Shown: piece by piece, positions 14,331-50,953 of the stretch
Layout: each line of letters begins with the position of its first letter
Position numbering within the stretch: the stretch's first letter is position 1
DNA from: an uncultured Acidimicrobiia bacterium
GTDB lineage: Bacteria > Pseudomonadota > Gammaproteobacteria > GCA-001735895
Assembly (NCBI GenBank): GCA_964195315.1
Contig: CAXMOZ010000146.1
Span: forward strand, 10,878 to 74,877
Direction of reading: 5' to 3'
Length of the DNA: 64,000 nucleotides
Translations under genes and position numbers: made by a program
Notes under the pieces: generated by a model
Database searches by the model: none
The model's input: the letters and a program-made list of their open reading frames with translations, nothing else
What the model was told of the DNA's origin: nothing

Positions 14331-14777
14331 ATGCCGGGTTTTGATATTAGTAAAGTGATGGAGCTATTACCTCACCGTTACCCTTTCTTGTTAATTGATA
14401 AAGTCGTCGATACGGACAATAAGACATTTCTTACTGCAATTAAGAATGTTTCTTTTAATGAACCGTTTTTTCAGGGTCATTTTCCGGGTAAACCAATTAT
14501 GCCTGGGGTTTTGATCCTCGAAGCCATGGCTCAAGCGACTGGTTTATTGTCTTTTTCATCGATGACCGAAGATCCTGAATCAAAGTTGCATATGTTAGTG
14601 GGCATGAATAAGTCCCGATTCAGAGGTCAGGTGATACCCGGCGATCAATTAGAAATCAAAGTTCGTCTGACGCGAAATATGCGTGGCATCGGCATGTTTG
14701 AATGCCAGGCATTTGTTAATGGATCAATGGTTGCGGAGTCGGATATGATGTGCTCCGCACAGGATAAAGACAAATGA
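14331..14777 (+). CDS. fabZ: 3-hydroxyacyl-ACP dehydratase FabZ
   Basis: LLPHRYPFLLIDKV…HFPGKPIMPGVL is the hotdog dehydratase signature. Confidence 0.9.
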   Translation: MPGFDISKVMELLPHRYPFLLIDKVVDTDNKTFLTAIKNVSFNEPFFQGHFPGKPIMPGVLILEAMAQATGLLSFSSMTEDPESKLHMLVGMNKSRFRGQVIPGDQLEIKVRLTRNMRGIGMFECQAFVNGSMVAESDMMCSAQDKDK

Positions 14778-15544
14778 TACATAACACAGCGATTATTGAT
14801 GAAAGCGCTAAGCTTGGCGAAAATGTCTCTATAGGCCCTTACAGTATCATTGGCCCCGACGTTGAAATTGGGGCGGGAACACAGATTGCATCACACGTCG
14901 TAATCAATGGGCCAACCCGTATTGGTGAGCAGAATAAAATTTTTCAATTTAGTTCTCTTGGTGAAGCACCGCAGGATAAAAAATACAATGGCGAGCCAAC
15001 CACACTTGTTGTTGGAGACAGAAACGTTATTCGTGAATACGTCACATTCAATCGAGGCACGGTGAATGGTATTGGCGAGACCATCATTGGCAGCGATAAC
15101 TTGTTTATGGCGTATTGTCATGTCGCTCATGACTGTATCGTTGGCAATAATATAGTATTTGCTAATTCGGCTTCATTAGGTGGCCATGTAGAGGTTGGTG
15201 ATTTCGCAATACTAGGTGGTTTTACAACAGTGCACCAGTTTACCCTGATAGGCGGCAAGTCACTTTGTGGCCAAGGCTCTGTTGTGACCCAGGATATACC
15301 ACCTTTTACAACGGCTGCTGGCAATCGTGCAAGAGCCATTGGTATAAATAAAGAGGGATTGCGACGAAAGGGTTTTTCCGCAGACTTAATTAGAGCCCTG
15401 CATCAGTCTTTCCGAGTGCTACTAAAATCAAAAGTTACGCAAGAAGTGGCATTTGAAAAGTTACAGCCATTGTGCGACAAGCACCCCGAAGTTGCTGAGT
15501 TTGTTAATTTTATTAAAACTAGTAAAAGAGGCATTGCACAATAA
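14774..15544 (+). CDS. lpxA: Acyl-ACP--UDP-GlcNAc O-acyltransferase
   Basis: It has hexapeptide repeats with an MIHNTAIID start. It follows fabZ with a 4-nt overlap. Confidence 0.9.
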   Translation: MIHNTAIIDESAKLGENVSIGPYSIIGPDVEIGAGTQIASHVVINGPTRIGEQNKIFQFSSLGEAPQDKKYNGEPTTLVVGDRNVIREYVTFNRGTVNGIGETIIGSDNLFMAYCHVAHDCIVGNNIVFANSASLGGHVEVGDFAILGGFTTVHQFTLIGGKSLCGQGSVVTQDIPPFTTAAGNRARAIGINKEGLRRKGFSADLIRALHQSFRVLLKSKVTQEVAFEKLQPLCDKHPEVAEFVNFIKTSKRGIAQ

Positions 15545-15650: not shown

Positions 15651-18600
15651 TTGATGAATATGTTAGGTAAAGTCCTAGGTATATGTTTATTTTTCGCCGG
15701 CGCATGTCAGCCGGTAATCGCACTCGAAATGCTACATTTCATTGAAGGTAAGGAATATTCTGATTATCTAGAAGATGCTAAAGGGCTTAAGATTACGAAT
15801 GACGGTATCGTTTATGTTACTAGTACACATAAAGGTAGTCTGCTTAAAATAACTGACGGTAATATTGAAGTAATAAATCTAAATCCATCGATATTCAAAG
15901 ATTCAGATCTCGCTGGTATTAATGCTCTCCACAATGGTAATTTGCTGATCGCTAATAGAGGGTCAGATAAAATTGCAATCGTTTCACCAGACCTGACCCC
16001 AATCAAACTTTTTTCAAGATCAGGTAGTGACCCAGGTGAGCTGGATGGACCTGGTACACTAACGGCTTCGGTTAATAATAGGATTTACGTTGCCGATCGC
16101 GGAAACAAGCAAATCTCTGTATTTAGTGATCAAGGGCTATTTCTGCATAGTTTTGGACGCCATGGCTCTGGTGGGAAGGATATCCTGAAACCTACCCATA
16201 TCAGTATTGATGCTGATGAAAATATCTACGTGCTGGAAGGTCAAGAACGACTTTCTATTTTTGATTTGCACGGCAACTTGATAGAACGATTCAAAAACAA
16301 AGACTTAAAAATACAATTCGATGGCATCCCTCAATTCGGTGCTATGACAGCGGATCTAAACGGCAACTTGTATCTGTCTGACAATAAGACCAATCAAATT
16401 AGTATATTCGATTGGCGTAAAAAAGAAGTGGTTCAACGGTTTGGTGCACTCGGTCAATCTAGAGCTCAATATCGCCGTATCCGTCAACTGTCAGTCAATA
16501 GCCATGGACAAATTGCTATTCTTGATACCAAAAATAAAAAAATTGAAATCTTTCAACTAGACCAAACGAGTTTCAAAGCACCCGTCATAAATGACACGAT
16601 ACGCGCTGCAGTAACCCTGAACGCCAAGTGCCGACTCACGCAAAGCTTTATTAAAGGTACCTTGCTATGCGTCAAACGAAATAAGAAAGGTACGGTTGTG
16701 TTATCTGCAGATGGCAAGGAGCTTCGCCCATTTGCAGCTGAGATAAAGAATCCAACGGCAATTCATAGCGACCAAAAAAGTGTTGCTCTTTTGCAAGGCA
16801 ATAAACTCCATACTTATTCCTCCGATGGTAATAATATGTTTGAAATCGGTAGGTATGGCATATCAGCAGGGGCATTTAAAGACCCTAAAGATGTCTTTAT
16901 TGCTCAGGGCCAATTCTATGTGACTGATATGGGTAATAATCGAGTACAAGTGTTTTCAGCTGACGGCCAATTTATTGAGGAAATAAAGGCGGGTAAGTCA
17001 GCTTCGAAATTATTCGGCAAGGTTGGCCCAATTGCAATCGACAGTAAAAAAAATCTCTACTTAGCCGATAAAGACGGCTCAGGCTCTATCAGAGTGATCG
17101 ATAAAGCGAGATCTCTTGTAACTAGTATAGGTGGTGGAAAAGGTAGTTCAATTCACAAAATCGAGACAGTTCAAGCTTTGGATATCGATAAGCAAGACAG
17201 ATTGTACGTGCTGGCGTCTACTGATTTCAATCCATACCAAATACAGATATTCAAGGACTATAAATTATTAAGGACATTTGGGGCGGGTGATGCAAATGGT
17301 ACTGAGTTTTATTTTGATAAAGTCAGTTCAATGTCGGTTGTTTCGAGCAAAACCAATAGCGTCTTCCTTAATGATGTCGAATTGAATCAGCTTAGTCGCT
17401 ACGATTTGCACGAATTTCCAGACCCCGCTTTTGGGCTAAGAATTGCGGCAAATAACAAACAAGTCAATTTTGAGTGGAGTAGTTCACGCTCACCACTTAT
17501 TGCAGAATATGAAATCCAAGGAGCCTCTAATCAAAAGGGGCCCTATAAAAAGCTGACCAGTAGTATTGAATTTAAAAGTGAAATGACGGTTAGTAAAACT
17601 GAACCATATAAATGGTTTAGAGTAGTTTCTGTCAGCGGTTTTGGTTTGCGTGGTAACCCTTCGGCGCCTAAAGTAAATCAATTTCAGCAAATTAAAGCCT
17701 TATATCAGTCAAAAAAATATGAAGACGCGATCAAGTTGAGTCGCAAGCTCTTAAAAATCTCTCCGGGCAATGCTGATGCGATGGATTTTTTAGCCTCTAG
17801 TTTGTATAAACTGAAAGATTATGCTGGCTCCATAGGCATATATAAGCAGTTAGAATCATTTCCACCGTATAAAAATAAGGCAATCAATTATCAAGTCCAA
17901 GCTTATTTTGAGCTAGAGCAATACCTCGATGCTCAAGGGCTCATTGATGAAGTTCTAGAGTCAGGCCCAACCGAGATTGAACCCTACTTGATTTGCACCC
18001 GGTTGAGTCTAAAGCTGGCCGATGCGATAGGTGCCGTCACCTGTGCCGAGGATGGCCTAGAGTTGCATAAAGATAATGTAACGCTTCGTTACCTACTAGG
18101 TCGTGCTTATATTGAAGCAGGGTTGAATGAAGAAGGTCTAGAAGCTTACCAAATCATTGTAGACAATAATCCAGGTGATCATGTAACAAGACTAAAGATA
18201 GCGCGTGATTTGTATGGTCTGGGTCATCTCGATGATGCACTTGGCCATTTTACGGCTATTGTTAGTGCCCAGCCAGGGCTAGGCGCTGCTGCGGTTGGCA
18301 AAGCCCGAACCCTGCTCAGTCTCAATCGCGATGATGAAGCAAAATCAATTGCGGTTAAGCTATCAGGCAAAAAAATAACGAAAGGTGAAGGCTATTATTT
18401 ATTAGGCAAGATTGCTGCTAAACAAGGTAAACACAAAGAAGCTGTATTACGCCTGACCCGTGCCGCTAAAGTGAAGCCTAAAGAAGTTGATACCTGGCTG
18501 TCACTAGCGCAATCGTATGCCAGTATTAATCAGCTACCGAAAGCCATAAAAGCGTTACAGCGAGGGTTAAAAAATAATGCTGAGGCTGGTGATTTGTATC

Positions 18601-20615
18601 AATTGGCGGGCAAGATACATTTAGAGCGAGAGCAATATCCGGAAGCTAATTCGATGTTAAAAATGGCTGTCGAACTCTCTCCAAATTTATTAATGCCAAA
18701 AAAATTATACGCAAGAGGCCTTTTTGCGACTCGTAATTATCGATCAGCGGCAACCTACGCTGAGCTTGCTGCTGAAATAGCGCCTAAAGACATCGATGTC
18801 CTCACCTTACAAGCCGACATTGCTAATCAGCAGGGCAAAACTGGATCGGCAATAGAGTTTTTGAAAACAGCTATCAATCTTGAACCCGCATCGGCTGAAT
18901 TGCAGTATCAAATTGGGCGGGTGTATCAGGATGCCAATCTGTTCGATGCATCTCGTGTTCATTTAGAAAAAGCTGCCAGTATTAACCCGGCTTGGGCCAT
19001 TCCCTATGTCGCGCTTGGTGATCTATTTTCAAAGCGTCGTTTGTTTGACGATGCGATTGGGTCATATGAAAAAGCGATTGAACTGGACCCTTCAGCTGAA
19101 AATAGAGCCGTACTTAATATTGCCTTTAGCGAGAGAAAGAAGTCGTTAGAGTTTAAAAATAATGCCCCTCAATTATTGTTGTCCGATCTTAATTTACAAA
19201 CTGTGTTTTCATCAGCCTATAAAAAATATTTGAATCAGCCCATTGGCAGTGTCAATCTTCAAAATGTGAGTGCAACCGATTATGGGAATTTAAAATTATC
19301 ATTTCAAATCAAAGAGTTTATGGATTTTCCAACGACGATTGATATTGCCAATTTAGAAGGTAATCAAACAAAAAAAATCGATATTAACGCGACTTTCAAT
19401 AACCGTATTCTTGAAGTGGATGAAGATACTGGTGTGCAGGTAGAAGTAAAGCTAAGCTATCTGAGGGATGGTCAAAAAGACGATATAACGCTAACCCAGC
19501 CGATGACCATCTATGGTAAAAATGCACTGGTATGGGGTGATCCAGCAATGGTCGGATCATTCGTAACACCGAAAGATGATACCTTGCGAGATTATGTCCG
19601 TCAGGTCGTCAATGAATTTGAGCCAGAAGCCGGTCCGCTCAATGATAAACTCGTCTCAGCAATGGTATATTTTAGTAGTCTGACCGCATTGGGCACTAAC
19701 TACATTATCGATCCTAATACACCATTCACAGAGTTACTAGATGACCAAATTGATTACGTTCAGTTCCCGCGTGAAACGCTGCGATTAAAAAGTGGCGATT
19801 GCGATGATCTATCAGTATTAATCAGTGCTGGTTTAGAAAATATTGGCATTAAAACTTCATTTATTGAGGTGCCAGGGCATCTATTCGTAATGTTTGATAC
19901 CGGCATATCCAGTGATGACTCCGGACTCATTAGTCAAAATAGTAGCCTGCTTGCGATTAAGGATGGCAACGTCTGGATTCCATTAGAAGCGACCATGGTC
20001 AACACCAGTTTTACCGAAGCCTGGGCTGAAGGTGCTCGTAAATATCACAAAGCTATAGCCGAAGACAACCTTGGGGTTATCGATTTAAGGCAAGCCTGGA
20101 AAGAATATAAGCCAGTTACTTTACGCAAAGCAAACTACTCGATCGCATTGCCCGAATCAAAGCGCACGCATAATCTAGTGAAGCAGGAAAAAACGGTAAT
20201 GCTTGCAAAGAGCATTGATCGACTAGTTCTACCCTATCAAACCATGGTGACGAGCAATCCAGGAAATATAGCGGCTCGATTACAAATAGCAATTCTCTAC
20301 GCTAGATTTGGGTTGTACGAAGATGCACAAATCGCATTCGAAGCATTAAATGAGTTAGCACCCGATGATAGTGCCGTGCAAACCAATCACGGAAATTTAT
20401 ACTTCCTGCAACAAGACTACCAAAAGGCGATTGAAAACTATACGAGAGCCAGTATTCTTGATAATGAAGACGGTGGCATCCATATCAATCTGTCGATGGC
20501 GTACTATAAGGCGGGGAAATTGAAACAAGCAACCTCCAGTTATACCAAAGCAACAGAACTAAGCCCTGCTTTGGAGCAGGAATATCTGGCTTATAGTAAA
20601 TTACTGAGCCAGTAA
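15651..20615 (+). CDS. Giant (1654 aa) secreted multidomain protein: signal peptide, about 12 NHL repeats forming two beta-propellers, an FN3-like domain, a long TPR array, a transglutaminase-like (TGc) Cys-His-Asp core and a C-terminal TPR region
   Basis: The N-terminal signal peptide is MMNMLGKVLGICLFFAGAC. Repeated YVADxGNxxIxVF-type NHL blades run to about residue 590. Many TPR-like helical repeats follow. A TGc core KSGDCDDLSVL…GIKTSFIEVPGHLFVMFD sits at about residues 1385-1430. Confidence 0.8.
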   Translation: MMNMLGKVLGICLFFAGACQPVIALEMLHFIEGKEYSDYLEDAKGLKITNDGIVYVTSTHKGSLLKITDGNIEVINLNPSIFKDSDLAGINALHNGNLLIANRGSDKIAIVSPDLTPIKLFSRSGSDPGELDGPGTLTASVNNRIYVADRGNKQISVFSDQGLFLHSFGRHGSGGKDILKPTHISIDADENIYVLEGQERLSIFDLHGNLIERFKNKDLKIQFDGIPQFGAMTADLNGNLYLSDNKTNQISIFDWRKKEVVQRFGALGQSRAQYRRIRQLSVNSHGQIAILDTKNKKIEIFQLDQTSFKAPVINDTIRAAVTLNAKCRLTQSFIKGTLLCVKRNKKGTVVLSADGKELRPFAAEIKNPTAIHSDQKSVALLQGNKLHTYSSDGNNMFEIGRYGISAGAFKDPKDVFIAQGQFYVTDMGNNRVQVFSADGQFIEEIKAGKSASKLFGKVGPIAIDSKKNLYLADKDGSGSIRVIDKARSLVTSIGGGKGSSIHKIETVQALDIDKQDRLYVLASTDFNPYQIQIFKDYKLLRTFGAGDANGTEFYFDKVSSMSVVSSKTNSVFLNDVELNQLSRYDLHEFPDPAFGLRIAANNKQVNFEWSSSRSPLIAEYEIQGASNQKGPYKKLTSSIEFKSEMTVSKTEPYKWFRVVSVSGFGLRGNPSAPKVNQFQQIKALYQSKKYEDAIKLSRKLLKISPGNADAMDFLASSLYKLKDYAGSIGIYKQLESFPPYKNKAINYQVQAYFELEQYLDAQGLIDEVLESGPTEIEPYLICTRLSLKLADAIGAVTCAEDGLELHKDNVTLRYLLGRAYIEAGLNEEGLEAYQIIVDNNPGDHVTRLKIARDLYGLGHLDDALGHFTAIVSAQPGLGAAAVGKARTLLSLNRDDEAKSIAVKLSGKKITKGEGYYLLGKIAAKQGKHKEAVLRLTRAAKVKPKEVDTWLSLAQSYASINQLPKAIKALQRGLKNNAEAGDLYQLAGKIHLEREQYPEANSMLKMAVELSPNLLMPKKLYARGLFATRNYRSAATYAELAAEIAPKDIDVLTLQADIANQQGKTGSAIEFLKTAINLEPASAELQYQIGRVYQDANLFDASRVHLEKAASINPAWAIPYVALGDLFSKRRLFDDAIGSYEKAIELDPSAENRAVLNIAFSERKKSLEFKNNAPQLLLSDLNLQTVFSSAYKKYLNQPIGSVNLQNVSATDYGNLKLSFQIKEFMDFPTTIDIANLEGNQTKKIDINATFNNRILEVDEDTGVQVEVKLSYLRDGQKDDITLTQPMTIYGKNALVWGDPAMVGSFVTPKDDTLRDYVRQVVNEFEPEAGPLNDKLVSAMVYFSSLTALGTNYIIDPNTPFTELLDDQIDYVQFPRETLRLKSGDCDDLSVLISAGLENIGIKTSFIEVPGHLFVMFDTGISSDDSGLISQNSSLLAIKDGNVWIPLEATMVNTSFTEAWAEGARKYHKAIAEDNLGVIDLRQAWKEYKPVTLRKANYSIALPESKRTHNLVKQEKTVMLAKSIDRLVLPYQTMVTSNPGNIAARLQIAILYARFGLYEDAQIAFEALNELAPDDSAVQTNHGNLYFLQQDYQKAIENYTRASILDNEDGGIHINLSMAYYKAGKLKQATSSYTKATELSPALEQEYLAYSKLLSQ

Positions 20616-20625
20616 CCCTGAATTA

Positions 20626-21195
20626 ATGGACCGAATTAGTGGAAGATATACAATGAAACAGTTAATCATTCTCATGCTATTTATTGGCGGGTTATCGATA
20701 ACCCAACCCGCTATATCACAAGATGATACAGTGAAGGAAGTGAGCACTCATAGTGTTTTCAAAGGTATTTTTCTGTCGATTTGGAGTAAACTTAAGGCAA
20801 TTAACCCGAGCCAAAAACAATCCGCCAAGGCTAACCAAGTTTATACGGCAGGTATCAGGGGGGCAGAAGCCACAGATACCCTATTAAAGCCCTATTGGAA
20901 AAATGACTTAACTCAAGATGAGGCTTTTCAGGCAGAATTGAAACAGTTTGGTCAGGCACAACAACAGCTCGACAAAGGTAAGCTGGGCCTTGCTGTTAAT
21001 GGTTTTGAGAAGTTTCTAGAGCAATATAATAGTAGCAGTTTAAGGCCCAATGCCTTGTTTGCAATGAGTATTAGTCTTGCCGGTATTGGTGAATCTGAAA
21101 CCTCGATCAATATCATGAAGTTGTTTTTAGATGAAAACCCGACTCACCCTTTAGCAAACGACGCTAAACAGGTTATAGCAGAATTATCGGCTTAA
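20626..21195 (+). CDS. Small exported TPR-like protein, hypothetical. A likely partner of the giant protein upstream.
   Basis: Its start lies 11 nt after the giant ORF's stop. The likely real start is MKQLIILMLFIGGLSITQPAISQ at 20653. It has a signal peptide and a helical repeat region. Confidence 0.5.
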   Translation: MDRISGRYTMKQLIILMLFIGGLSITQPAISQDDTVKEVSTHSVFKGIFLSIWSKLKAINPSQKQSAKANQVYTAGIRGAEATDTLLKPYWKNDLTQDEAFQAELKQFGQAQQQLDKGKLGLAVNGFEKFLEQYNSSSLRPNALFAMSISLAGIGESETSINIMKLFLDENPTHPLANDAKQVIAELSA

Positions 21196-21299: not shown

Positions 21300-22004
21300 A
21301 TGAATATTCTAGCCATTGAAACCTCTACCGAGGCCTGTTCTGCTGCCTTACTGCGCGCTGATGGCGTGATTTTCAGTGAGTTTCAAATTGCTCCGCGCCA
21401 GCATACTAAGTTATTACCACAGATGATGGACGCTGTGCTAAAGGCATCGCAGTTGTCAAAGCGTGATATTTCTCATTGCACTTTTGCCAATGGGCCCGGC
21501 GCTTTCACCGGTATACGAATTGCAGCATCGACTGCCCAGGGTATAGCGATAGCTCTGGATATTCCTATTGCGCCGATTTCATCGCTGGCAGTATTGGCTC
21601 AGGCAAGCCTGGATAAGTATGATTTGCCCGATGTTTTGGTAGCCCTGGACGCCCGCATGGGCGAAGCCTATTGGGCAGTTTATGAAAGAGATGATACAGG
21701 CCTAGCCTTACTCAAAGGTAAGGAAAACCTCAGTAAACTAGGCGATGTGTTTTTACAGGCTATACCAGCCTGTGGGACAGGGCATGGCTGGACTGTAGGT
21801 GAATCCATCTGGCGTCAGACATTTTTGGGAGAACAGGAAATTAGACTAGATTCAGCATTGTTCCCCGACTCGGTGGCTTTACTAAAACTGGCTCAGCAGG
21901 CCATTGATAACGGAGATGTTGTTTCGGCTGATCATGTTTCAATCAACTACCTGCGAAATAAAGTGGCTGAAAAATCAAAAAAAAATCCTTTGGCTAGAGG
22001 CTAA
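21300..22004 (+). CDS. tsaB: tRNA threonylcarbamoyladenosine biosynthesis protein TsaB
   Basis: MNILAIETSTEACSAALL…FANGPGAFTGIRIA is the YeaZ/TsaB signature. Confidence 0.8.
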   Translation: MNILAIETSTEACSAALLRADGVIFSEFQIAPRQHTKLLPQMMDAVLKASQLSKRDISHCTFANGPGAFTGIRIAASTAQGIAIALDIPIAPISSLAVLAQASLDKYDLPDVLVALDARMGEAYWAVYERDDTGLALLKGKENLSKLGDVFLQAIPACGTGHGWTVGESIWRQTFLGEQEIRLDSALFPDSVALLKLAQQAIDNGDVVSADHVSINYLRNKVAEKSKKNPLARG

Positions 22005-22008
22005 ACCA

Positions 22009-23028
22009 TTGAAATACCCTTACGGTGAACCACACCAAACTGGTGTCATAAAAAGCCAGGCTGACGATTTTCGTGTTATAGAAAACTTAGGTTTCGAGCC
22101 TTGTGGCGAAGGAGAACATCTGTTTCTTCACATCGAAAAAACAAACTTAACCACGCAAGATTTGATAGAGCAGATAGCACGTGAATTTACTGTTAAGCCC
22201 CGTGATATTGGTTATAGCGGTTTGAAGGACAAACTAGCGGTGACGCAGCAGTGGCTTAGTGTACATTTGCCGGGCCAAATGAATAGCACAGAAATACCGT
22301 CACCATCTCACTACAAACTGTTGCAACATGGATGGCACAATAAAAAAATTCGAGCGGGTACTCATCGCTCTAATAGCTTTGAAGTGATGGTTAGAAACGT
22401 CGCTGAATTATCAAGCCAAACGCAACAGCAAATCGATGATATCAAAGAGTTTGGAATGGCCAACTATTTTGGCGAGCAGCGCTTCGGTGCTCAGCAAGAT
22501 AATGTTGAGCGCGCGATTCACAGCTTTACGAATGAACGACGAACCCGAAAGCTGAGCCGAACCAAGCGCAGTCTATATATATCAGCATTGCGGAGTTTTT
22601 TGTTTAATCAGATTTTATCCCAGCGTATCGAGCAAAGTCATTGGCATCAGCCTTTGCAGGGTGATGTTTTTATGTTGTCAGGCAGTCACTCTCTATTCTC
22701 TGAGATAATTGACGACAGCATTCTAGATCGCTTCCAGCAGCATGATATCTCCAGTGCTGCTAGTATGTATGGTGCAGGGAGTCGTATGTTATCCGAAATG
22801 GCTTTAGCGCTAGAAGACGATATTTTTCATCAGCACCCACAGATTGTAGAGTGTCTAGATGCGCAAAAAGTAAAACTACAAATGCGTACGACTCGGGTGA
22901 CGGTGCAGGCGTTTAATGTTATTCACGATGCTGATACACAGTCACTAACAGTAAGTGTAACGTTGCCGAGTGGTTGTTTTTTTACAACGCTACTCAAACA
23001 TTTTATTGATACATCAAACAGCGGGTAG
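22009..23028 (+). CDS. truD: tRNA pseudouridine(13) synthase TruD
   Basis: The GLKDKLAVTQQWLS motif is the TruD catalytic-Asp motif. The N-terminal alignment to TruD begins at KYPYGEP, so the TTG at 22009, immediately after the tsaB stop, is the likely start. The track start at 21904 overlaps tsaB. Confidence 0.8.
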   Translation: MKYPYGEPHQTGVIKSQADDFRVIENLGFEPCGEGEHLFLHIEKTNLTTQDLIEQIAREFTVKPRDIGYSGLKDKLAVTQQWLSVHLPGQMNSTEIPSPSHYKLLQHGWHNKKIRAGTHRSNSFEVMVRNVAELSSQTQQQIDDIKEFGMANYFGEQRFGAQQDNVERAIHSFTNERRTRKLSRTKRSLYISALRSFLFNQILSQRIEQSHWHQPLQGDVFMLSGSHSLFSEIIDDSILDRFQQHDISSAASMYGAGSRMLSEMALALEDDIFHQHPQIVECLDAQKVKLQMRTTRVTVQAFNVIHDADTQSLTVSVTLPSGCFFTTLLKHFIDTSNSG

Positions 23029-30200: not shown

Positions 30201-33140
30201 TTGGATTGCATTTTAATGACAGAGACATCACCAGTAAAAAGCGAAATTAAATCGACCACCTGTTACATGTGTGCCTGTCGGTGTGGTATTAATGTAACAG
30301 TCGACGATGGCGAAGTTCGCTATATCGAAGGCAATCCCAGGCACCCAATTAACAAGGGTGTCATCTGTGCCAAGGGTTCCTCGGGAATAATGAAGCAATA
30401 TTCACCTGCGCGCATTACCAAACCATTACGACGAATACCGGGTGCAGAACGCGGTACGTCCGAGTTCGAAGAGATATCCTGGGAAGAAGCGCTCGATACA
30501 ATTAGTACACGTCTTAACCATATTCGCGAAACTGATCCTAAACAATTTGCACTGTTTACTGGTCGCGATCAGATGCAAGCCTTAACCGGATTGTTTGCAA
30601 AACAATTTGGTACACCAAACTACGCGGCCCATGGTGGTTTTTGTTCGGTGAACATGGCTGCTGGATTAATCTATACCATTGGCGGGTCGTTTTGGGAATT
30701 CGGTGGACCTGATTTGGAACGTTCAAAGTTATTCATCATGATAGGCACCGCCGAAGACCATCACTCAAATCCAATGAAGATGGAGCTTGCTCAGTTCAAA
30801 CGCAATGGCGGAAAATTTATTGCAATTAACCCAGTGCGAACCGGCTATGCTGCCATTGCTGATGAATGGGTGCCAATAAAGCCAGGCACCGATGGCGCTT
30901 TGTTACTTGCTATCAATCACGAAATTATCAAGCAGGGTCTTTATGACCATGACTTTCTATCTAAATACAGCAACTCTCCTGACTTGGTTAATACTGATGA
31001 AGCCAGTGATGCTTTTGGTATGTTTATTCGTTCCATCATAGAGCTCGAAAATAGCAGTGTAGAGCCAGAAAACAAAGTGTGGTGGGATAAACATACTGGG
31101 AAAGAAGTACCCTCACATACACCCGGTGCCGAACCTCGGTTACTGGGTGACTTCGAGCTAGAAGACGGCACGACGGTCAAACCATCTTTCCAGTTATTGA
31201 AAGAGCGGTTAGAGAAATACACGCCAGAATGGGCGGCTGACATTACCGGTATTTCTGCAGAAACGATTCGTCGCTTAGCTCACGAGATGGGTATTGTTGC
31301 CCGCGATGAAACAATTGAGCTTCCCATTCCATGGACTGATACCTGGGGCAATGAGCATGAATCTGTCACTGGTAACCCAGTGTCATTTCATGCCATGAGA
31401 GGCTTAGCGGCTCATTCTAATGGTTTCCAGACTATCCGGTCACTCGGCATATTAATGACGCTATTGGGCACTATCGACCGCCCAGGTGGGTTTCGTCACA
31501 AAGCACCATTCCCACGTCCTATTCCCCCTTGTGCAAAACCACCCAAGTCACCTGAAGATGTTCAACCGGGTGCTCCATTGGAGGGTATGCCCCTTGGTTT
31601 TCCAGCATCACCTGAAGATTTATTTGTCGATGATGAAGGTGGTCCGGTTCGTCTAGACAAAGGGTTCTCCTGGGAATATCCGCTCTCAGTGCATGGTTTA
31701 ATGCACAATGCGATTACTAACGCATGGCGTGGCGATCCTTACCCTATCGATACAATGATGTTGTTCATGGCTAACATGGCCTGGAACTCATCGATGAACA
31801 CGTCTAAGGTTCGTGAAATGTTGACCGACAAGAGAGAAGATGGAGAGTATAAAATTCCATTTTTAATTGTCTGCGATGCTTTCCATTCTGAAACCATAGC
31901 GTTTGCGGATATCGTATTACCCGATACGACTTATCTCGAACGATACGATGCGATGTCAATGCTTGACAGGCCGATCTCTGAGTTTCAGGGTCCTGCTGAT
32001 TCAGTCCGTGTGCCGGTTGTGCCACCCAAAGGTGACTGTCGTCCTTTTCAAGATGTTATTGTCGAATTGGGTTCAAGGCTTAAACTGCCACGTTTTATGA
32101 ATTTTGACGGCACACGTAAATTCAAAGACTACAAAGACTTCGTTATAAATTTCGAAACTGAACTGGGTTCTGGCATTGGTTTTCTAGCGGGCTGGCGCGG
32201 CAAGGACGGAGACAAGTCTATGCGCGGCGAGCCAAACCCTAATCAATGGGAAATGTACGCCAAGAATGATTGTGTTTTTCAGCACGAGTTGCCAAAGTCG
32301 TATCAATACATGCGTAACTGGAACCAGGGTTATCTCAACTGGGCTCAGGATCATAGCCTGATTAAACATACCGACCCTATTAACATCCATGTCTACTCAG
32401 AACTACTTCAAAAATTTCGTTTAGCCGCAGAAGGTAAGCGCGAAGGTCGTCAACCACCCGACCACCTGCGTGAACGAGTCAGGTTACACTTTGACCCGTT
32501 ACCATTTTATTCTGAGCCACTAGAAACAATGACGATAGACAAAGATCTCTACCCATTGAATGCCATAACTCAGCGACCAATGGCGATGTATCATTCCTGG
32601 GATTCTCAAAATGCCTGGTTGCGACAAATTCATGCCCATAATTATTTGGTCATGAGCCCTAGTGTAGGTGCAGATAATGGCTTTGGTGATGGCGACTGGA
32701 TCTGGGTTGAATCTGCCCATGGTAAAGTGAGGTGTATGTGTCGATTCAGTGAATCAGTAGAGCCGGGGACAGTATGGACCTGGAACGCTATTGGTAAAGC
32801 CTCGGGCAGCTGGTCTTTAGATGACAAAGCGAATGAATCGAAAAAAGGTTTTTTGTTAAACCATTTGATTAGCGAAGAGATTCCATCTGGCAAAGGTGAT
32901 GGAATGTATTCAAATTCTGACCCCATTACAGGACAGGCGGCTTGGTACGATCTGCGTGTTCGCGTTTACAAGGCGGGTGATGACGAGCCAAAAGAAACAT
33001 CGCCACAATTCGACACAATGAAACGAGTGCCTGGTATGGAACCCGCTCGTGGCCTATGGCAATCATTTGCAAAGGGTTTGCTTAACGGTGTATCAAAGAA
33101 AGATGTTTCAAATAACGGTTCTTCTAAGAAGAAGGGGTAG
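30201..33140 (+). CDS. soeA: Molybdopterin (bis-MGD) oxidoreductase catalytic subunit with no Tat signal, consistent with sulfite dehydrogenase (quinone) SoeA
   Basis: The N-terminal CYMCACRCGINV…CAKG is a 4Fe-4S cluster motif of the Mo-bisPGD family. 979 aa. There is no RR twin-arginine motif. It is followed by an FeS subunit and an NrfD-like subunit. Confidence 0.7.
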   Translation: MDCILMTETSPVKSEIKSTTCYMCACRCGINVTVDDGEVRYIEGNPRHPINKGVICAKGSSGIMKQYSPARITKPLRRIPGAERGTSEFEEISWEEALDTISTRLNHIRETDPKQFALFTGRDQMQALTGLFAKQFGTPNYAAHGGFCSVNMAAGLIYTIGGSFWEFGGPDLERSKLFIMIGTAEDHHSNPMKMELAQFKRNGGKFIAINPVRTGYAAIADEWVPIKPGTDGALLLAINHEIIKQGLYDHDFLSKYSNSPDLVNTDEASDAFGMFIRSIIELENSSVEPENKVWWDKHTGKEVPSHTPGAEPRLLGDFELEDGTTVKPSFQLLKERLEKYTPEWAADITGISAETIRRLAHEMGIVARDETIELPIPWTDTWGNEHESVTGNPVSFHAMRGLAAHSNGFQTIRSLGILMTLLGTIDRPGGFRHKAPFPRPIPPCAKPPKSPEDVQPGAPLEGMPLGFPASPEDLFVDDEGGPVRLDKGFSWEYPLSVHGLMHNAITNAWRGDPYPIDTMMLFMANMAWNSSMNTSKVREMLTDKREDGEYKIPFLIVCDAFHSETIAFADIVLPDTTYLERYDAMSMLDRPISEFQGPADSVRVPVVPPKGDCRPFQDVIVELGSRLKLPRFMNFDGTRKFKDYKDFVINFETELGSGIGFLAGWRGKDGDKSMRGEPNPNQWEMYAKNDCVFQHELPKSYQYMRNWNQGYLNWAQDHSLIKHTDPINIHVYSELLQKFRLAAEGKREGRQPPDHLRERVRLHFDPLPFYSEPLETMTIDKDLYPLNAITQRPMAMYHSWDSQNAWLRQIHAHNYLVMSPSVGADNGFGDGDWIWVESAHGKVRCMCRFSESVEPGTVWTWNAIGKASGSWSLDDKANESKKGFLLNHLISEEIPSGKGDGMYSNSDPITGQAAWYDLRVRVYKAGDDEPKETSPQFDTMKRVPGMEPARGLWQSFAKGLLNGVSKKDVSNNGSSKKKG

Positions 33141-33939: not shown

Positions 33940-34914
33940 ATGAAACCTGCAATATCTGTCATTCTACTCACGACTTTAATTGGTGTCGCTCAGGGCCTAT
34001 TTTTGGCTTATTACAGCGCCGAGTTACTCTCCCTACTGTTAATCCTACCTAATCAAGAGTTGGTAGGGTCAGGCCTTGCTGGAGTGGTCAGTGTTGTGCT
34101 CTTGGTGGGTGGTTTGATTGCATCATTCTTTCATTTGGGACATCCCGAACGCGCATGGCGTGCTGCTACTATGTGGCGTACATCATGGTTATCACGCGAA
34201 GTAATTGCATTGCCAATAGCGATGGGCTTAGTGTTTATTTATAGCGCATTAAAACTGATGGGTAATCACCACATTATGTTTAATTTGGGTAATGGTAGTC
34301 AGGTAGAGCTGGCAACCGTGGTTGGTTTTTTCGCAATGATTGCAGTTTTCGCCCTGTTTATTTGCACCGCGATGATTTACAGCTGCCTTAAATTTCTACG
34401 CCAATGGTATAGCCCGCTCACCGTGTTAAATTTTTTCCTGATGGGCTGTGCATCAGGGTTCGTACTGGCAAGTGCTTTGGCAGCTTATTATGATCCACAG
34501 GTTTTTGGCTATATATCGGGTGCTGCTATAGTTCTTAGTGTTGCAGCCTTGGCCTCGAGATACGCTTCATTGGTTCGTAATAAAAACTTACGTAGCCCAA
34601 GCACATTGCAAACAGCAATTGGTGTCCATCATCCAAATATTAGGCAGATAGCACAGGGCGCTATGGGGGGTAGTTATAATACCAGAGCCTTTATCCACAC
34701 TTATGGTCCAGCAGTGGTTAAATTGGCTCGGCGGTTCTTTCTAGTGGCCGGTTTTATTATTCCTATCTTGTTACTAGCCATTAGTAATGAATCTCCAATA
34801 GTGATCTGTTCATTGGCATTTTTGATTCAATACACTGGGTTGCTAGCCGAGCGATGGTACTTTTTTATAGAAGCTGAACATCCGCAAAATCTATACTATC
34901 AAATGATTACCTAG
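33940..34914 (+). CDS. soeC: NrfD/PsrC-family integral membrane quinone-interacting subunit (SoeC-like)
   Basis: 324 aa with about 8 hydrophobic helices. It lies immediately downstream of the FeS subunit. Confidence 0.7.
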   Translation: MKPAISVILLTTLIGVAQGLFLAYYSAELLSLLLILPNQELVGSGLAGVVSVVLLVGGLIASFFHLGHPERAWRAATMWRTSWLSREVIALPIAMGLVFIYSALKLMGNHHIMFNLGNGSQVELATVVGFFAMIAVFALFICTAMIYSCLKFLRQWYSPLTVLNFFLMGCASGFVLASALAAYYDPQVFGYISGAAIVLSVAALASRYASLVRNKNLRSPSTLQTAIGVHHPNIRQIAQGAMGGSYNTRAFIHTYGPAVVKLARRFFLVAGFIIPILLLAISNESPIVICSLAFLIQYTGLLAERWYFFIEAEHPQNLYYQMIT

Positions 34915-43556: not shown

Positions 43557-44159
43557 CTACTCATCGTAAGGCTCAATCGAGTCAACACTCATGGTGTAGG
43601 CCGAATGCACTTCCAGGCTATTCGCAACACCTGACTCATTAAGCAGGCTGTTTGAACGACTTGTTTGCAGTGTACCGGTAATCCAGACAGGTTGATAAAT
43701 GTCGCTGAACTCAGTTTCTGCTTTTAATTGACCAAAGATTATTTGATTGGCAGGTGGCGGCGGAGTATGGGTACAGGCACCAAAGTAGGGCACCAGTAAA
43801 AACTCTCTCAGTAATGTGTTGCTAAATTCTAGGGGCAATACGAAACCAGGAATCTTTACCCGTTTACCATCCAGTTCATCATTGACGGGCGCGGCATCGA
43901 ACTTTGCCTGGACTTCTTCCTCCAGGCGCAGCAGTTCATCGTCAGAAAGCGCGTTGTACTGCTGATCTGTCATGTCTTCAAAAACCTTGGTCGGGTTCCA
44001 GTCGGGCGGCGCCAAACTCCCCCACTGTATTTTTTCTGGATCAGTTAGATTCGAATCAGCCGCAAACGCACTGTTAAAACTCAGGCAGGATAATAGGAAA
44101 ATAATAAGTTGGCACTTTAAAGACCACTGAATGTTTTGCACTTTTTTATCCTGTTTCAT
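43557..44159 (-). CDS. DUF3299-family exported protein, fourth gene of the putative Zn-uptake cluster (ZrgD-like?)
   Basis: It has a signal peptide and overlaps the permease stop. DUF3299 characteristically accompanies FtsX-type ABC systems. Confidence 0.55.
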   Translation of the reverse strand: MKQDKKVQNIQWSLKCQLIIFLLSCLSFNSAFAADSNLTDPEKIQWGSLAPPDWNPTKVFEDMTDQQYNALSDDELLRLEEEVQAKFDAAPVNDELDGKRVKIPGFVLPLEFSNTLLREFLLVPYFGACTHTPPPPANQIIFGQLKAETEFSDIYQPVWITGTLQTSRSNSLLNESGVANSLEVHSAYTMSVDSIEPYDE

Positions 44160-45406
44160 AGTCGGGTAGACATACCGTCAGCCAGTGAGTTCTGATAAGC
44201 CCGATACGCTGGGACCAGGCCGACGATAAAACCAGTGACGAGTAAAATCGAGACCATCAATATCTCTCTCTCATTGGGTAGAGTGATGGGTATGAATAAG
44301 CCGTAATTCGCTTCTATGATTGGTTGGCTTAACCCGAGTGCGGAATATAGTAGAACTATTCCAAGCAATATGCCTGCTATCGTTAATAACAGGGTCTCGG
44401 TGATCAGTAAGCCCATAATATGCCAATGGCTAGCCCCAACAGAGCGTAAAATGGCGACTTCACGCCTGCGTTCATTTAGCCCCGCAAGAGAGACTGCTAG
44501 CATTCCCGTGAGCGATGCCAATACAACAAATAGAGAAATAATCAATAGTGCCTTTTCTGCTACCGACATTAAGCTCCATAGTTCGAGCAGTGCAATACCG
44601 GGGAAAATGGCAAGCAGTGGTTCATCAGTGTATTCGTTAACATAGCGCTGAAGCCTGAATGATGTGACTTTGTTTTCGAGCCCTACTAGAAATGCTGTAA
44701 TAGACTTGGGTTGTAGGTTGGACTCTGATAAAGTTTTACCGAACTTTCTTTTGTTAACCGCGCTTTGCCAGTTGATGTGCATGGCTTCGATACCGGCGAG
44801 GCTGACATGAACTGTCCTGTCTACGGGTGTTCCTGTATGTTCTAAGATACCGCTAATGACGAATGGTTTATCTTTGTGTTCAGAAAAACTAGTGCTCACA
44901 GTACCGTGTGAAATGACTACCTCATCACCGATAGAATAGCTTAATGATCTTGCGACTTCTGAGCCGACGACGGTATCAAATACATCGTCGAAAGGTTTAC
45001 CTGAAGCGAGTTGAAGTTTTCGTTTTTGGCCATACTGGTAAAAAGCGAAATAATCTTTGCTAGTCCCCATAACACGAAAACCACGATGTGAATCGCCGAG
45101 TGATATAGGAATCGTCCATTTGACTCCTTTTTTTTGTGCGATAGCCTGGTAACTATCCCAGCTAATATTATTGGTGGCACTGCCTATTCTAAATACGGAA
45201 TAGAGCAATAGCTGAATTGACCCACTGCGCGCACCGACAATAAGGTCTGTTCCTGAAATAGTATTCGCAAAACTACTTTGAGCGTTAACTCGAATTTTCT
45301 CGACACCGAGCAAAAGAACGACACTCACAGCAATAGAGACAATAGTTAATATTGCAGTCGAGTGTCGTCTACATAAACTTTTCCAGGCGAGCATTCGAAG
45401 ATTCAT
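44156..45406 (-). CDS. ABC transporter permease, FtsX/MacB-like
   Basis: It has four TM helices with a large periplasmic loop and a C-terminal FtsX helical bundle. 416 aa. Confidence 0.8.
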   Translation of the reverse strand: MNLRMLAWKSLCRRHSTAILTIVSIAVSVVLLLGVEKIRVNAQSSFANTISGTDLIVGARSGSIQLLLYSVFRIGSATNNISWDSYQAIAQKKGVKWTIPISLGDSHRGFRVMGTSKDYFAFYQYGQKRKLQLASGKPFDDVFDTVVGSEVARSLSYSIGDEVVISHGTVSTSFSEHKDKPFVISGILEHTGTPVDRTVHVSLAGIEAMHINWQSAVNKRKFGKTLSESNLQPKSITAFLVGLENKVTSFRLQRYVNEYTDEPLLAIFPGIALLELWSLMSVAEKALLIISLFVVLASLTGMLAVSLAGLNERRREVAILRSVGASHWHIMGLLITETLLLTIAGILLGIVLLYSALGLSQPIIEANYGLFIPITLPNEREILMVSILLVTGFIVGLVPAYRAYQNSLADGMSTRL

Positions 45407-49781: not shown

Positions 49782-49924
49782 CTCAAGGTAATGGCAAGCT
49801 AGAAGGTTCTTTCTATCGGGTTCTTTTGTGGTCATTTTTTTGCATAGATGAGCTATTTTAAACGATTGTGCCGGGTAGAAAGCATGGCTTGTTGAGACAA
49901 TTTAACAAGGGTAAGAATATCTCT

Positions 49925-50953
49925 ATGTTCAGAAAAAAAATAGCGACATTATTTTTTATAATCGCAATCACTCTATTGTTTTTCGTCTGTTTGACACTTT
50001 GGTCTTTCAGTAATGATCTAGTTAATCGTGGCATCCTTTTAATCCCAGTATTTATTCTTATTTGGATTAACTTTAGATCTAGTCGGTATTTAGCGAGGAC
50101 TAAGCATTTTCGCTATCTTTATTTAATACCTTTAACGGCCTTATTCAGCATCAATGTGATTGTCATTAGTTATGACGTGGCATTGAGTTACAGCGATTAC
50201 CATTTAAAACAAAGGACATACTCTGACATTAATAGTTGTTCAAAGGTATGGGCGACTAGAGGGTTTGTTCCTGGTGATTCAACAATCACGCCGGATGGTA
50301 AGCAAAATTCGATTGGGAGTATTCAACTGGCTTTCGACAATGCAGCTGTCGGAAATGAAGTTGATGTTTTTTATGACGTGGTGATGGGGCGGTACGTCGT
50401 ATCTCATGATAGAAATCCATACAACCTGAAAAAAGGTGAGCTTTTAACCTTAAATGAATTGTTCATTGCTACTGGGGACGAAGGGTACTTTTGGCTCGAC
50501 TTTAAAAAACTGCGTCATCTTGATAAGGAGCAGTTGGCAAATGCGATCGCTAGATTGGATCTGATATCGTCAACGGGTGATCTTAAAAATAGGATTTATA
50601 TTGAAGGGGCAGCACCTATTAATTTAAATGCATACCAAAGGGCTGGGTTTAAAACGATTTTTGATACCCATCCTATGGTTGATAGTCATCTGCTAACGCC
50701 ACTTGTTGTCAATGTTTATAAAATAGCTTATTACCTTGGTGATTTCACTGTTATCGGTATGAACTATGGCGACAAAGTATCGCCTATTTATGGCAAACGA
50801 GTTCGTCAGATTTTAGGCAATACCCCTAGCTTTATTTACCATGTGCCAAATGATAAGGCATTACTAAAAGAACTATCATCGGTGAGTCAAATTCAGGTGT
50901 TACTGGCTCGCGATCAAAGTTTGAATCTGTTTGGAATTACTCATTGCAATTGA
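49925..50953 (+). CDS. Membrane-anchored GDPD-like (glycerophosphodiester phosphodiesterase-like) protein with a substituted catalytic His
   Basis: It has three N-terminal TM helices. ATRG(…)EVDVFYDVVMGRYVVSHD aligns to the GDPD pattern AHRG…E[L]DV..T.DG..VV.HD, with Thr in place of the first His. Confidence 0.5.
   Translation: MFRKKIATLFFIIAITLLFFVCLTLWSFSNDLVNRGILLIPVFILIWINFRSSRYLARTKHFRYLYLIPLTALFSINVIVISYDVALSYSDYHLKQRTYSDINSCSKVWATRGFVPGDSTITPDGKQNSIGSIQLAFDNAAVGNEVDVFYDVVMGRYVVSHDRNPYNLKKGELLTLNELFIATGDEGYFWLDFKKLRHLDKEQLANAIARLDLISSTGDLKNRIYIEGAAPINLNAYQRAGFKTIFDTHPMVDSHLLTPLVVNVYKIAYYLGDFTVIGMNYGDKVSPIYGKRVRQILGNTPSFIYHVPNDKALLKELSSVSQIQVLLARDQSLNLFGITHCN

Follow-up and report, generated by a model that had tools for sequence, protein, structure and literature searches.

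Periplasmic TGc-fold enzymes and CHASE2 receptors

LapG, a periplasmic protease with the transglutaminase core (TGc) fold, acts on a specific envelope target and is coupled to the receptor LapD (PMC3032545). HvyA, a periplasmic BTLCP of Caulobacter, blocks capsulation, and its catalytic Cys, His and Asp residues are required (PMC4241560). MtxA of Magnetospirillum is a signal-peptide protein with tetratricopeptide repeat (TPR)-like or immunoglobulin (Ig)-like elements, and its gene lies beside a conserved CHASE2-adenylate cyclase gene (PMC4439547). In the literature CHASE2 figures only as a presumed receptor domain for small molecules, and no paper establishing what it senses was found. Described here is a 64,000-nucleotide stretch (the window) of contig CAXMOZ010000146.1 from an uncultured gammaproteobacterium, in which a gene for an exported protein of about 1650 amino acids (aa) with a TGc-fold domain, termed here the giant, is followed by a gene for a small exported partner.

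14774..15544, + strand: lpxA (NF003657, 360 bits), a lineage-specific neighbour outside the module
15654..20615, + strand: giant gene, ATG start, 1653 aa; full-length orthologues of ~1650 aa fall into about 100 clusters
20653..21195, + strand: small exported partner, 180 aa, with signal peptide, amphipathic helix, conserved motif and YbgF/BamD-like TPR_6 domain

The giant represents a large unnamed family of exported TGc-fold enzymes that has so far been labelled just 'tetratricopeptide repeat protein'. The family is defined by three features: a Cys-His-Glu triad without variation, a small obligate partner whose linear motif is almost invariant, and operons shared repeatedly with CHASE2 receptor genes. 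Together, giant and partner make up a self-contained periplasmic module, found widely among bacteria. Because the recurrent genomic companion of the family is a CHASE2-domain membrane receptor, it is quite possible, and is proposed here tentatively, that a periplasmic thiol protease or transamidase and its cognate small protein form an accessory arm of CHASE2 signalling, unlinked from the receptor in this organism.

The catalytic core

An earlier sequence-only reading of the window proposed that the giant carries a TGc core with a Cys-His-Asp triad. The features that bear on this are as follows; residues of the giant are counted with the TTG codon at 15651 as residue 1.

19143..19532, + strand: Ig-like beta-sandwich, aa 1165–1294 (AlphaFold2 model mcbddceaac401; strands at model residues 11–130)
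19539..20162, + strand: divergent TGc-fold catalytic domain (papain-like), aa 1297–1504, from AlphaFold2, Foldseek and the Pfam matches of relatives
20163..20612, + strand: long connecting helix and three to four C-terminal TPRs, about aa 1505–1654 (TPR_2/TPR_8 at aa 1610–1640, TPR_12 at 1575–1637)
19800..19802, + strand: Cys1384 (G-D-C-D-D), helix N-terminus; invariant in 140 of 140
19878..19880, + strand: His1410 (P-G-H-L-F), opens a beta-strand; invariant in 140 of 140
19986..19988, + strand: Glu1446 (W-I-P-L-E-A-T), predicted third triad residue, on the next strand; invariant in 140 of 140

The AlphaFold2 model of aa 1165–1545 (predicted local distance difference test, pLDDT, 93.3) consists of an Ig-like beta-sandwich, an alpha/beta domain and a long helix at model residues 339–371. 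The alpha/beta domain modelled alone (aa 1297–1504) has a pLDDT of 93.7, and in this TGc-only model Cys88 starts helix 88–101, His114 starts strand 114–124 and Glu150 comes after strand 144–149. A Cys at a helix N-terminus, then a His and an acidic residue on successive strands, is the order expected of TGc and papain-like enzymes. Judged by this secondary-structure placement, Cys1384, His1410 and Glu1446 form a triad in the papain/transglutaminase arrangement in the model. The invariance of the three residues was scored in 140 representative clusters (each at most 50% identical), and the surrounding motifs G-D-C-D-D and W-x-P-x-E-x-T are conserved as well. Thus the fold, the Cys and the His of the proposed core stand, and the Asp does not: Asp1416 (MFD) is ruled out as a triad member by its variability (N in 51, D in 50 and S in 20 of the 140), with Glu1446 invariant instead.

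Searches with the two-domain model in Foldseek were dominated by Ig-like sandwiches (LEA, lamin tail, arrestin and the FXIII N-domain match the sandwich), and the TGc-only model was therefore used for fold assignment. Its top matches in the PDB are almost all of TGc fold, although they are weak (E 7e-3 to 1, TM-score 0.24–0.42). They include LapG (4fgo, 4fgq and the LapG–LapD complex 4u65), PNGase, Rad4/XPC, CPR-C4, PeiP/PeiW, TG2 and microbial transglutaminases, as well as 3isr and 3kd4, two structural-genomics 'putative cysteine proteases'. Profile searches of solved structures added little: the TGc-only profile had no match even at E 10, and a profile of the module alignment was swamped by the C-terminal TPR columns and was uninformative.

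Domain searches and structure prediction had been suggested as a check by the sequence-only reading. They recovered the NHL and TPR repeats and a modelled TGc fold, but Transglut_core stays below threshold in the window protein. Its TGc domain reaches 16.3 bits with DUF553 (PF04473; E 0.007–0.019, cut-off 20.5) and 12.6 bits with Transglut_core (PF01841; E 0.17, cut-off 23). Among relatives, at E <= 1, Transglut_core is matched by 14 of 16 (best 2.3e-6) and DUF553 by 12 of 16; the homologue encoded at metagenome locus L106 reaches 21.3 bits with Transglut_core, against the same cut-off of 23. No curated model that names this catalytic module was found. The models at pLDDT 93–94, the TGc-superfamily matches in Foldseek and the invariant Cys, His and acidic residues support a catalytically competent TGc core, as far as a predicted structure and conservation can indicate.

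The small exported partner

In all genome loci that are long enough, the partner gene comes immediately after the giant, also in those of orthologues of 36–37% identity in unrelated neighbourhoods. In metagenomes, where its usual length is about 131 aa, it follows the TGc gene at no fewer than 73 of the 74 informative loci. It also follows short-contig relatives (L086, L087, L088 and L091; 416–629 aa as called, some cut by contig ends). These counts rest on tblastn; calling of open reading frames alone missed some partners. At least 602 clusters of the small protein exist, some of them labelled 'TolA-binding protein' by JGI.

20851..20901, + strand: partner motif G-I-R-G-A-E-x8-P-Y-W-K, with G67, R69, G70, Y81, W82 and K83 (180-aa numbering)

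The motif segment of the window, at 20845–20904, reads TAGIRGAEATDTLLKPYWKN. Across 133 homologues of the partner, from the 130-aa and the 180-aa class alike, P52, G67, R69, G70, Y81, W82 and K83 are 96–99% conserved. The C-terminal ~80 aa match TIGR02795 at E 8e-8 (32.9 bits, cut-off 90.1), with the TPR part alone aligning, and TIGR03302 at E 6.5e-5 (22 bits, cut-off 81). The partner does not qualify as a YbgF/CpoB equivalog by TIGR02795 or NF008068. Its C-terminal half thus resembles the TPR domain of YbgF/CpoB and BamD, but the partner differs from these proteins in having no coiled-coil N-domain, no lipobox and its own GxRG…YWK motif. Unlike YbgF/CpoB, it is always encoded beside the TGc protein and not in tol-pal. 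From its sequence and constant company, the partner is most plausibly a cognate substrate, pro-ligand or regulator of the TGc enzyme.

Linkage to CHASE2 receptors

A divergent CHASE2-adenylate/guanylate cyclase gene is immediately upstream of the ~1650-aa giant in 14–15 loci. These are labelled Acidiferrobacterales, Muproteobacteria and Burkholderiales, and their CHASE2 proteins are 46–69% identical to the L041 reference copy. A metagenome scan that started from a different family branch yielded 80 loci, and 41 of these were informative (at least 2.3 kb of upstream sequence). The position of CHASE2 in these was:

28 of 41 metagenome loci: CHASE2-cyclase immediately upstream, same strand, gaps of 50–90 nt
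4 of 41 metagenome loci: CHASE2 divergent upstream
2 of 41 metagenome loci: CHASE2 elsewhere in the locus
7 of 41 metagenome loci: no CHASE2

Overall, a CHASE2 gene is present in 34 of the 41. In the 28 same-strand cases the cyclase, TGc and partner genes form one operon in this order. Pfam finds both CHASE2 and Guanylate_cyc in all six cyclase proteins sampled. The CHASE2-linked loci form 9 and 8 clusters at 70% identity, so the linkage does not come from one over-sampled organism. Across independent architectures of the TGc protein, CHASE2 is the only recurring neighbour. Its output domain varies: most companions are adenylate/guanylate cyclases, and others carry a sigma54 activator or a LuxR-type regulator. 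On short contigs, a CHASE2-cyclase gene overlaps the TGc gene at L087, and a CHASE2-sigma54 activator and a CHASE2-GerE (LuxR-type) protein are found at L085 and L089.

The arrangement at L106 (3828–10201, + strand) is a same-strand operon of three genes, which encode a CHASE2-adenylate/guanylate cyclase of ~680 aa, an NHL-FN3-sandwich-TGc-TPR protein of ~1250 aa and a GxRG…YWK protein of ~131 aa. The same three-gene operon occurs at L107–L112, L115, L120–L127 and L140–L171. No description of this operon was found in the literature searched, nor any paper that connects CHASE2 with a protein of the TGc, NHL or TPR kind, although literature coverage was incomplete.

Of the cassette as it is defined in this analysis (CHASE2 receptor, TGc-TPR protein and small partner), the window contains the TGc-TPR protein followed directly by the GxRG…YWK small protein; it has no CHASE2 gene adjacent to that pair. 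The sequence-only reading missed the CHASE2 linkage because there is no CHASE2 in the window, and the linkage, a contextual clue from outside, is a better one than the position next to lpxA.

Position next to lpxA

In the window the genes upstream of the giant are dxr-rseP-bamA-skp-lpxD-fabZ-lpxA and those downstream of the partner are tsaB-truD, all on the same strand as the giant. The sequence-only reading gave functional weight to this site within a lipopolysaccharide (LPS)/outer-membrane operon, and proposed that the position of orthologues be compared. This comparison goes against the weight given to it. The lpxD-fabZ-lpxA genes are upstream in only 30 of 84 genome loci, usually with tsaB-truD downstream where the contig is long enough, and all 30 belong to one gammaproteobacterial clade in which module identity is at least 65% (65–82%). 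In the other 54 genome loci, and in all metagenome loci examined, the giant and partner pair sits elsewhere. An emphasis on LPS and the outer membrane is therefore unsupported, since the lpxA-adjacent position is clade-specific, and the lpxA neighbourhood should not count as evidence for a role in LPS/outer-membrane biogenesis. In the clade of the window, the pair would have been relocated between lpxA and tsaB, and the receptor, if retained, would be encoded elsewhere.

Gene-neighbourhood clustering of the genome loci found no universal neighbour. The neighbours of the 54 non-lpxA giant loci include RluA-like (15 loci), CHASE2-cyclase (14), GspB-like (11), ExeA-like (10), penicillin-binding protein (PBP) 1A (7) and MoxR-DUF58-TgpA (6–7) genes. 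In some of these loci the pair is followed by genes for an ExeA-like protein (AAA_22 and PG_binding_1), a GspB-like protein (T2SSB) or a class A PBP, as in:

L044 10134–11930, L038 10117–10746 and L047 12796–15351, - strand: downstream envelope genes in non-lpxA loci

The ExeA-like, GspB-like and PBP neighbours probably reflect lineage synteny, because they are present in just 7–11 of the 54 loci. The MoxR (AAA_3)/DUF58-like/TgpA (TgpA_N, Transglut_core and DUF4129) operon is divergently upstream of the giant (e.g. L004 3579–7582, - strand); these loci thus have a second, membrane-bound TGc protein beside the exported one.

Comparison with described systems

The giant has already been deposited many times under a generic name and belongs with the periplasmic TGc-fold thiol enzymes. 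Like LapG, it is a Sec-exported periplasmic TGc-fold thiol enzyme, and LapG is among its best structural matches (4fgo, 4fgq and 4u65; E 7e-3 to 4e-2). LapG is coupled to an inner-membrane receptor of the nucleotide second-messenger world and has a specific protein target, and the same is proposed here for the giant. The giant is nevertheless not a BTLCP, to judge from its sequence, because no BTLCP model appears among its Pfam hits, even at E <= 1–10, because its third triad residue is an invariant Glu and not Asp/Asn, and because it is about eight times larger. LapG has ~200 aa, as opposed to the ~1650 aa of the giant with its propellers, FN3 module, TPRs and obligate partner. The receptors also differ: LapD is a GGDEF-EAL protein that works inside-out, whereas the receptor of the giant's relatives is a CHASE2-cyclase, sigma54 or helix-turn-helix protein that would work outside-in. 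In addition, the receptor is unlinked in the window, unlike the LapG–LapD pair.

HvyA and the giant are alike as exported TGc-type enzymes, and in both the genomic context varies between lineages; the target of HvyA lies in the envelope. HvyA, however, is a 272-aa single domain encoded in a capsule locus and has no TPR/NHL scaffold, conserved small partner or CHASE2 link. The Transglut_core/DUF553 superfamily (TgpA, PNGase and animal transglutaminases) has the Cys at a helix N-terminus and the His and acidic residue on later strands, as does the giant, and animal transglutaminases also have an N-terminal beta-sandwich before the core. Where the giant differs is in scores below both gathering thresholds, in TM-scores of 0.24–0.42 to solved members and in Glu as the acidic residue. 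MtxA (~35 kDa) has no TGc domain and offers an analogy only, as a secreted protein encoded beside a CHASE2-cyclase gene; no homology of MtxA to the giant or the partner was seen.

The 'anti-phage protein ProA' of NCBIfam (NF058533, 1903 aa) has in common with the giant the two-domain module of beta-sandwich and TGc (window 19143–20285, aa 1165–1545; L106 8301–9350). A cytoplasmic defence protein may thus share this module. No paper describing ProA was found in the literature searched. By its scores, all far below the cut-offs, the giant falls outside ProA, PrsT, YbgF and the other curated NCBIfam families.

A possible signalling role

If the giant and its partner do assist CHASE2 signalling as an accessory arm, then TGc would use its thiol to act on amide bonds, by proteolysis or by transamidation/deamidation, in a protein that the repeat domains of the giant hold. 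Giant and partner would generate, remove or present the ligand of the CHASE2 receptor, or would be sequestered by it. The coupling logic would be like that of the periplasmic TGc protease LapG with its membrane receptor LapD. We infer the chemistry, the substrate and the receptor link.

In a more specific form of this proposal, the giant and its partner would supply the ligand and make up one half of CHASE2 signalling. On an envelope or environmental cue, TGc would cleave or transamidate the partner at G-x-R-G…Y-W-K, and the processed partner, or the enzyme-partner complex, would be sensed by the CHASE2 periplasmic domain and give a cyclase or transcriptional output. In this detail the scheme is speculative and rather unlikely. 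If true, CHASE2 would gain a protein ligand and a dedicated processing enzyme, and the clade of the window would have a split system with the receptor encoded elsewhere. A co-encoded enzyme and candidate substrate offer a testable route to what CHASE2 senses.

Several observations weigh against a CHASE2 role for the giant. The window protein itself is below every Pfam TGc threshold and resembles solved TGc enzymes only weakly in structure (E >= 7e-3, TM-score 0.24–0.42). A tblastn search with three CHASE2 proteins found none in the 64-kb window and none in the lpxA-type loci, and the link for the window organism is thus extrapolated from relatives. An adjacent CHASE2 gene is absent in 7 of the 41 informative metagenome loci and in most non-lpxA giant loci. 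Finally, the candidate role of the partner as substrate comes from co-occurrence and motif conservation alone.

Other explanations should be considered. The enzyme might belong to a lipid A/outer-membrane biogenesis operon and cross-link or trim envelope proteins during outer-membrane assembly. The giant is co-directional with bamA-skp-lpxD-fabZ-lpxA, no terminator is predicted in the 107-nt gap after lpxA, and this order is kept in 30 related loci of 65–82% module identity; furthermore, the giant is exported, the partner resembles the TPRs of YbgF/BamD, and envelope genes (PBP1A, ExeA/GspB-like) are among the neighbours in other lineages. This explanation is improbable, however, in view of the limitation of lpxA adjacency to one clade: the pair lies elsewhere in 54 of the 84 genome loci and in every metagenome locus examined. 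The site is not a coherent envelope operon, because the flanking tsaB-truD are tRNA-modification genes, and the most recurrent neighbour across lineages is a CHASE2 receptor and not an envelope-biogenesis gene. Alternatively, TGc could act on a non-protein or cell-wall substrate, as a PeiW/PeiP-like peptidoglycan/isopeptide endopeptidase or a PNGase-like glycan-peptide amidase, and the polymer would be bound by the propellers and TPRs. Among the Foldseek matches are indeed PNGase and two pseudomurein endoisopeptidases, PeiP and PeiW, but they are no better than the protein-directed LapG (E 0.13–0.4 vs 7e-3). Subsets of loci have PBP1A or a peptidoglycan-binding ExeA-like gene downstream, and AmiC is encoded elsewhere in the window; yet cell-wall neighbours occur in just 7–11 of the 54 loci, and it is left unexplained why a small partner is obligate and keeps an invariant linear motif. 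A cell-wall substrate is therefore quite unlikely, although less so than the two readings that remain.

The first of these takes the giant as a purely structural periplasmic scaffold or adaptor, its TGc domain binding without catalysis in the manner of Rad4/XPC or protein 4.2. Repeat scaffold does make up most of the giant, and inactive TGc domains (Rad4, protein 4.2) are found among the structural matches. Inactivated TGc domains are, however, said to lose their catalytic residues typically, and here Cys, His and Glu are each invariant in 140 of 140 divergent clusters, with the G-D-C-D-D and W-x-P-x-E-x-T motifs kept, which makes a purely structural role very unlikely. The second, that the giant is an anti-phage defence component related to ProA, draws on the N-terminal ~330 residues of NF058533, the only NCBIfam model that matches the sandwich and TGc (E 2e-12 for the window protein and 7e-15 for that of L106). 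Scores of 40.7–45.2 bits against a cut-off of 1500, with model positions 11–335 of 1903 (17%) matched, effectively refute membership in ProA as far as profile scores can. A PADLOC scan gave no defence-system match, the giant is exported, and its locus is vertically conserved among housekeeping genes and unremarkable in GC content, so that a defence role can scarcely be maintained.

Domain anatomy of the giant

The N-terminal part of the giant, ahead of the sandwich, is composed of the following:

15654..15722, + strand: Sec signal peptide, aa 2–24, MNMLGKVLGICLFFAGACQPVIA followed by LE; by sequence inspection
15738..16580, + strand: NHL beta-propeller 1, about aa 30–310 (Pfam NHL, DUF5128; best stretches aa 132–213; approximate boundaries)
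16638..17420, + strand: NHL beta-propeller 2, about aa 330–590 (NHL E 1.5e-6, DUF5128 E 1.2e-3 on the isolated segment)
17424..17690, + strand: FN3-like module, about aa 592–680; collinear homologues match fn3
17700..19142, + strand: central TPR array of ~480 aa, about aa 684–1164 (TPR_19/TPR_16 and others; TIGR02917 PrsT-like over aa 684–1164)

The N-termini of orthologues were inspected by eye for the signal peptide. All 94 full-length orthologues have a hydrophobic leader with an A-x-A-like site, then a conserved LE[IM]LH (the leader ends ...A-[LIQ]-[ED]). Export of the giant and of its helical-repeat partner, as had been proposed, is thus borne out by the leaders of both and by their conservation in the 94 orthologues of the giant. 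A lipoprotein reading of the N-terminus (FAGAC) was rejected as unlikely, because the Cys residues of the leader are not conserved in orthologues.

Two NHL propellers and TPRs had been read from the sequence and are both recovered. The N-terminus of the giant scores 61.3 bits with Pfam NHL (cut-off 20) and 75.3 bits with the 6-bladed propeller DUF5128 (cut-off 22.9), and the second propeller and the NHL region in the L106 homologue are collinear. TPR families are above threshold over the central and C-terminal arrays (TPR_19 142.7 bits, TPR_2 117 bits, and further families). The FN3-like module fared less well: its segment in the window giant has no match to Pfam fn3 (PF00041), and it is the collinear homologues that match fn3 (1.3e-10 for the L106 protein, 1.1e-23 for P0361). 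The propellers, the FN3-like module and the TPR arrays serve as scaffolds that bind proteins or ligands.

The last ~490 residues are the best-conserved part of the giant, with column identity peaking at 0.93 near residues 1351–1400. The giant is collinear with its 1256-aa relative of L106 (35% identical in the core, 23% in the propellers), except for the ~480-aa central TPR array. This array is an insertion relative to the ~1250-aa CHASE2-adjacent proteins, and BLASTP against the L106 protein shows no counterpart of it.

Family size and variation

About 100 clusters of full-length ~1650-aa orthologues, 34–100% identical, are known from uncultured Gammaproteobacteria, and their annotation is at most 'tetratricopeptide repeat protein'. 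The sequence-only reading had allowed that its case would weaken if the arrangement proved common and already annotated in relatives; it is common in relatives, and has been deposited there only under that generic name. Among organisms with a name, the closest are uncultured Gammaproteobacteria, one of them the Olavius algarvensis Gamma 3 endosymbiont. Labelled carriers are this endosymbiont, Thiohalomonas, Acidiferrobacterales, Thiotrichaceae, Ectothiorhodospiraceae, Ca. Muproteobacteria and Burkholderiales. In a scan of one genome per GTDB species, at least 520 genomes encode a relative. A search with a TGc-only profile gives 1552 clusters (50% identity) with a limit of E <= 1e-30 and 5657 with one of E <= 1e-3, in host proteins of ~600 to 1750 aa.

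Sampled variants have a constant core of sandwich, TGc and C-terminal TPRs. Their N-terminal additions vary and can be NHL propellers with FN3, ankyrin repeats, TPRs or nothing recognisable. The 976-aa protein P0382 has ankyrin repeats (Ank_2, 436 bits) before the TGc-TPR core in place of the NHL propellers. Ankyrin repeats are unusual for bacterial proteins that appear exported, as this one does.

Reading frames and other genes in the window

The giant gene is an uninterrupted + strand open reading frame at 15651–20615, with 1654 codons counted from TTG, and begins 107 nt after the lpxA stop at 15544. This agrees with the sequence-only reading, apart from a likely true length of 1653 aa. The start is almost certainly ATG 15654 and not TTG 15651, because this ATG has a GAGGGA Shine-Dalgarno sequence 7 nt upstream and the protein that begins there is 100% identical to the 1653-aa database protein P0001. 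The exported 189-aa frame that had been noted 11 nt after the giant is present on the + strand at 20626–21195, and carries a signal peptide. Its most likely start, however, is ATG 20653, which is preceded by GGAAG; a 100%-identical database protein (P0234) has 180 aa, and orthologues are of ~180 aa. The gap between giant and partner would therefore be 37 nt and not 11.

GC content is 0.40–0.44 across the locus and 0.39–0.48 for the window, and is thus unremarkable. Among the lpxB-sized open reading frames tested in the 64-kb window, none is LpxB. The truD frame as mechanically called (21904–23028, + strand, TTG start, 374 aa) overlaps tsaB (21300–22004) by ~100 nt. Orthologous truD has ~343 aa and overlaps tsaB by only 4 nt (L002); the shorter orthologues and merely 4-nt overlap place the real start probably near 22000.

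Three open reading frames in the window have no NCBIfam match at E <= 1e-20: 44156–45406 (- strand, 416 aa), 49868–50953 (+ strand, 361 aa) and 33940–34914 (+ strand, 324 aa). The frame at 30201–33140 (+ strand) encodes a 979-aa molybdopterin oxidoreductase, whose N-terminal ~260 aa resemble thiosulfate reductase PhsA and subunits of the DMSO-reductase family, with all scores below family cut-offs. Such an enzyme fits a sulfur-metabolising gammaproteobacterium related to the clade of the Olavius Gamma 3 symbiont.

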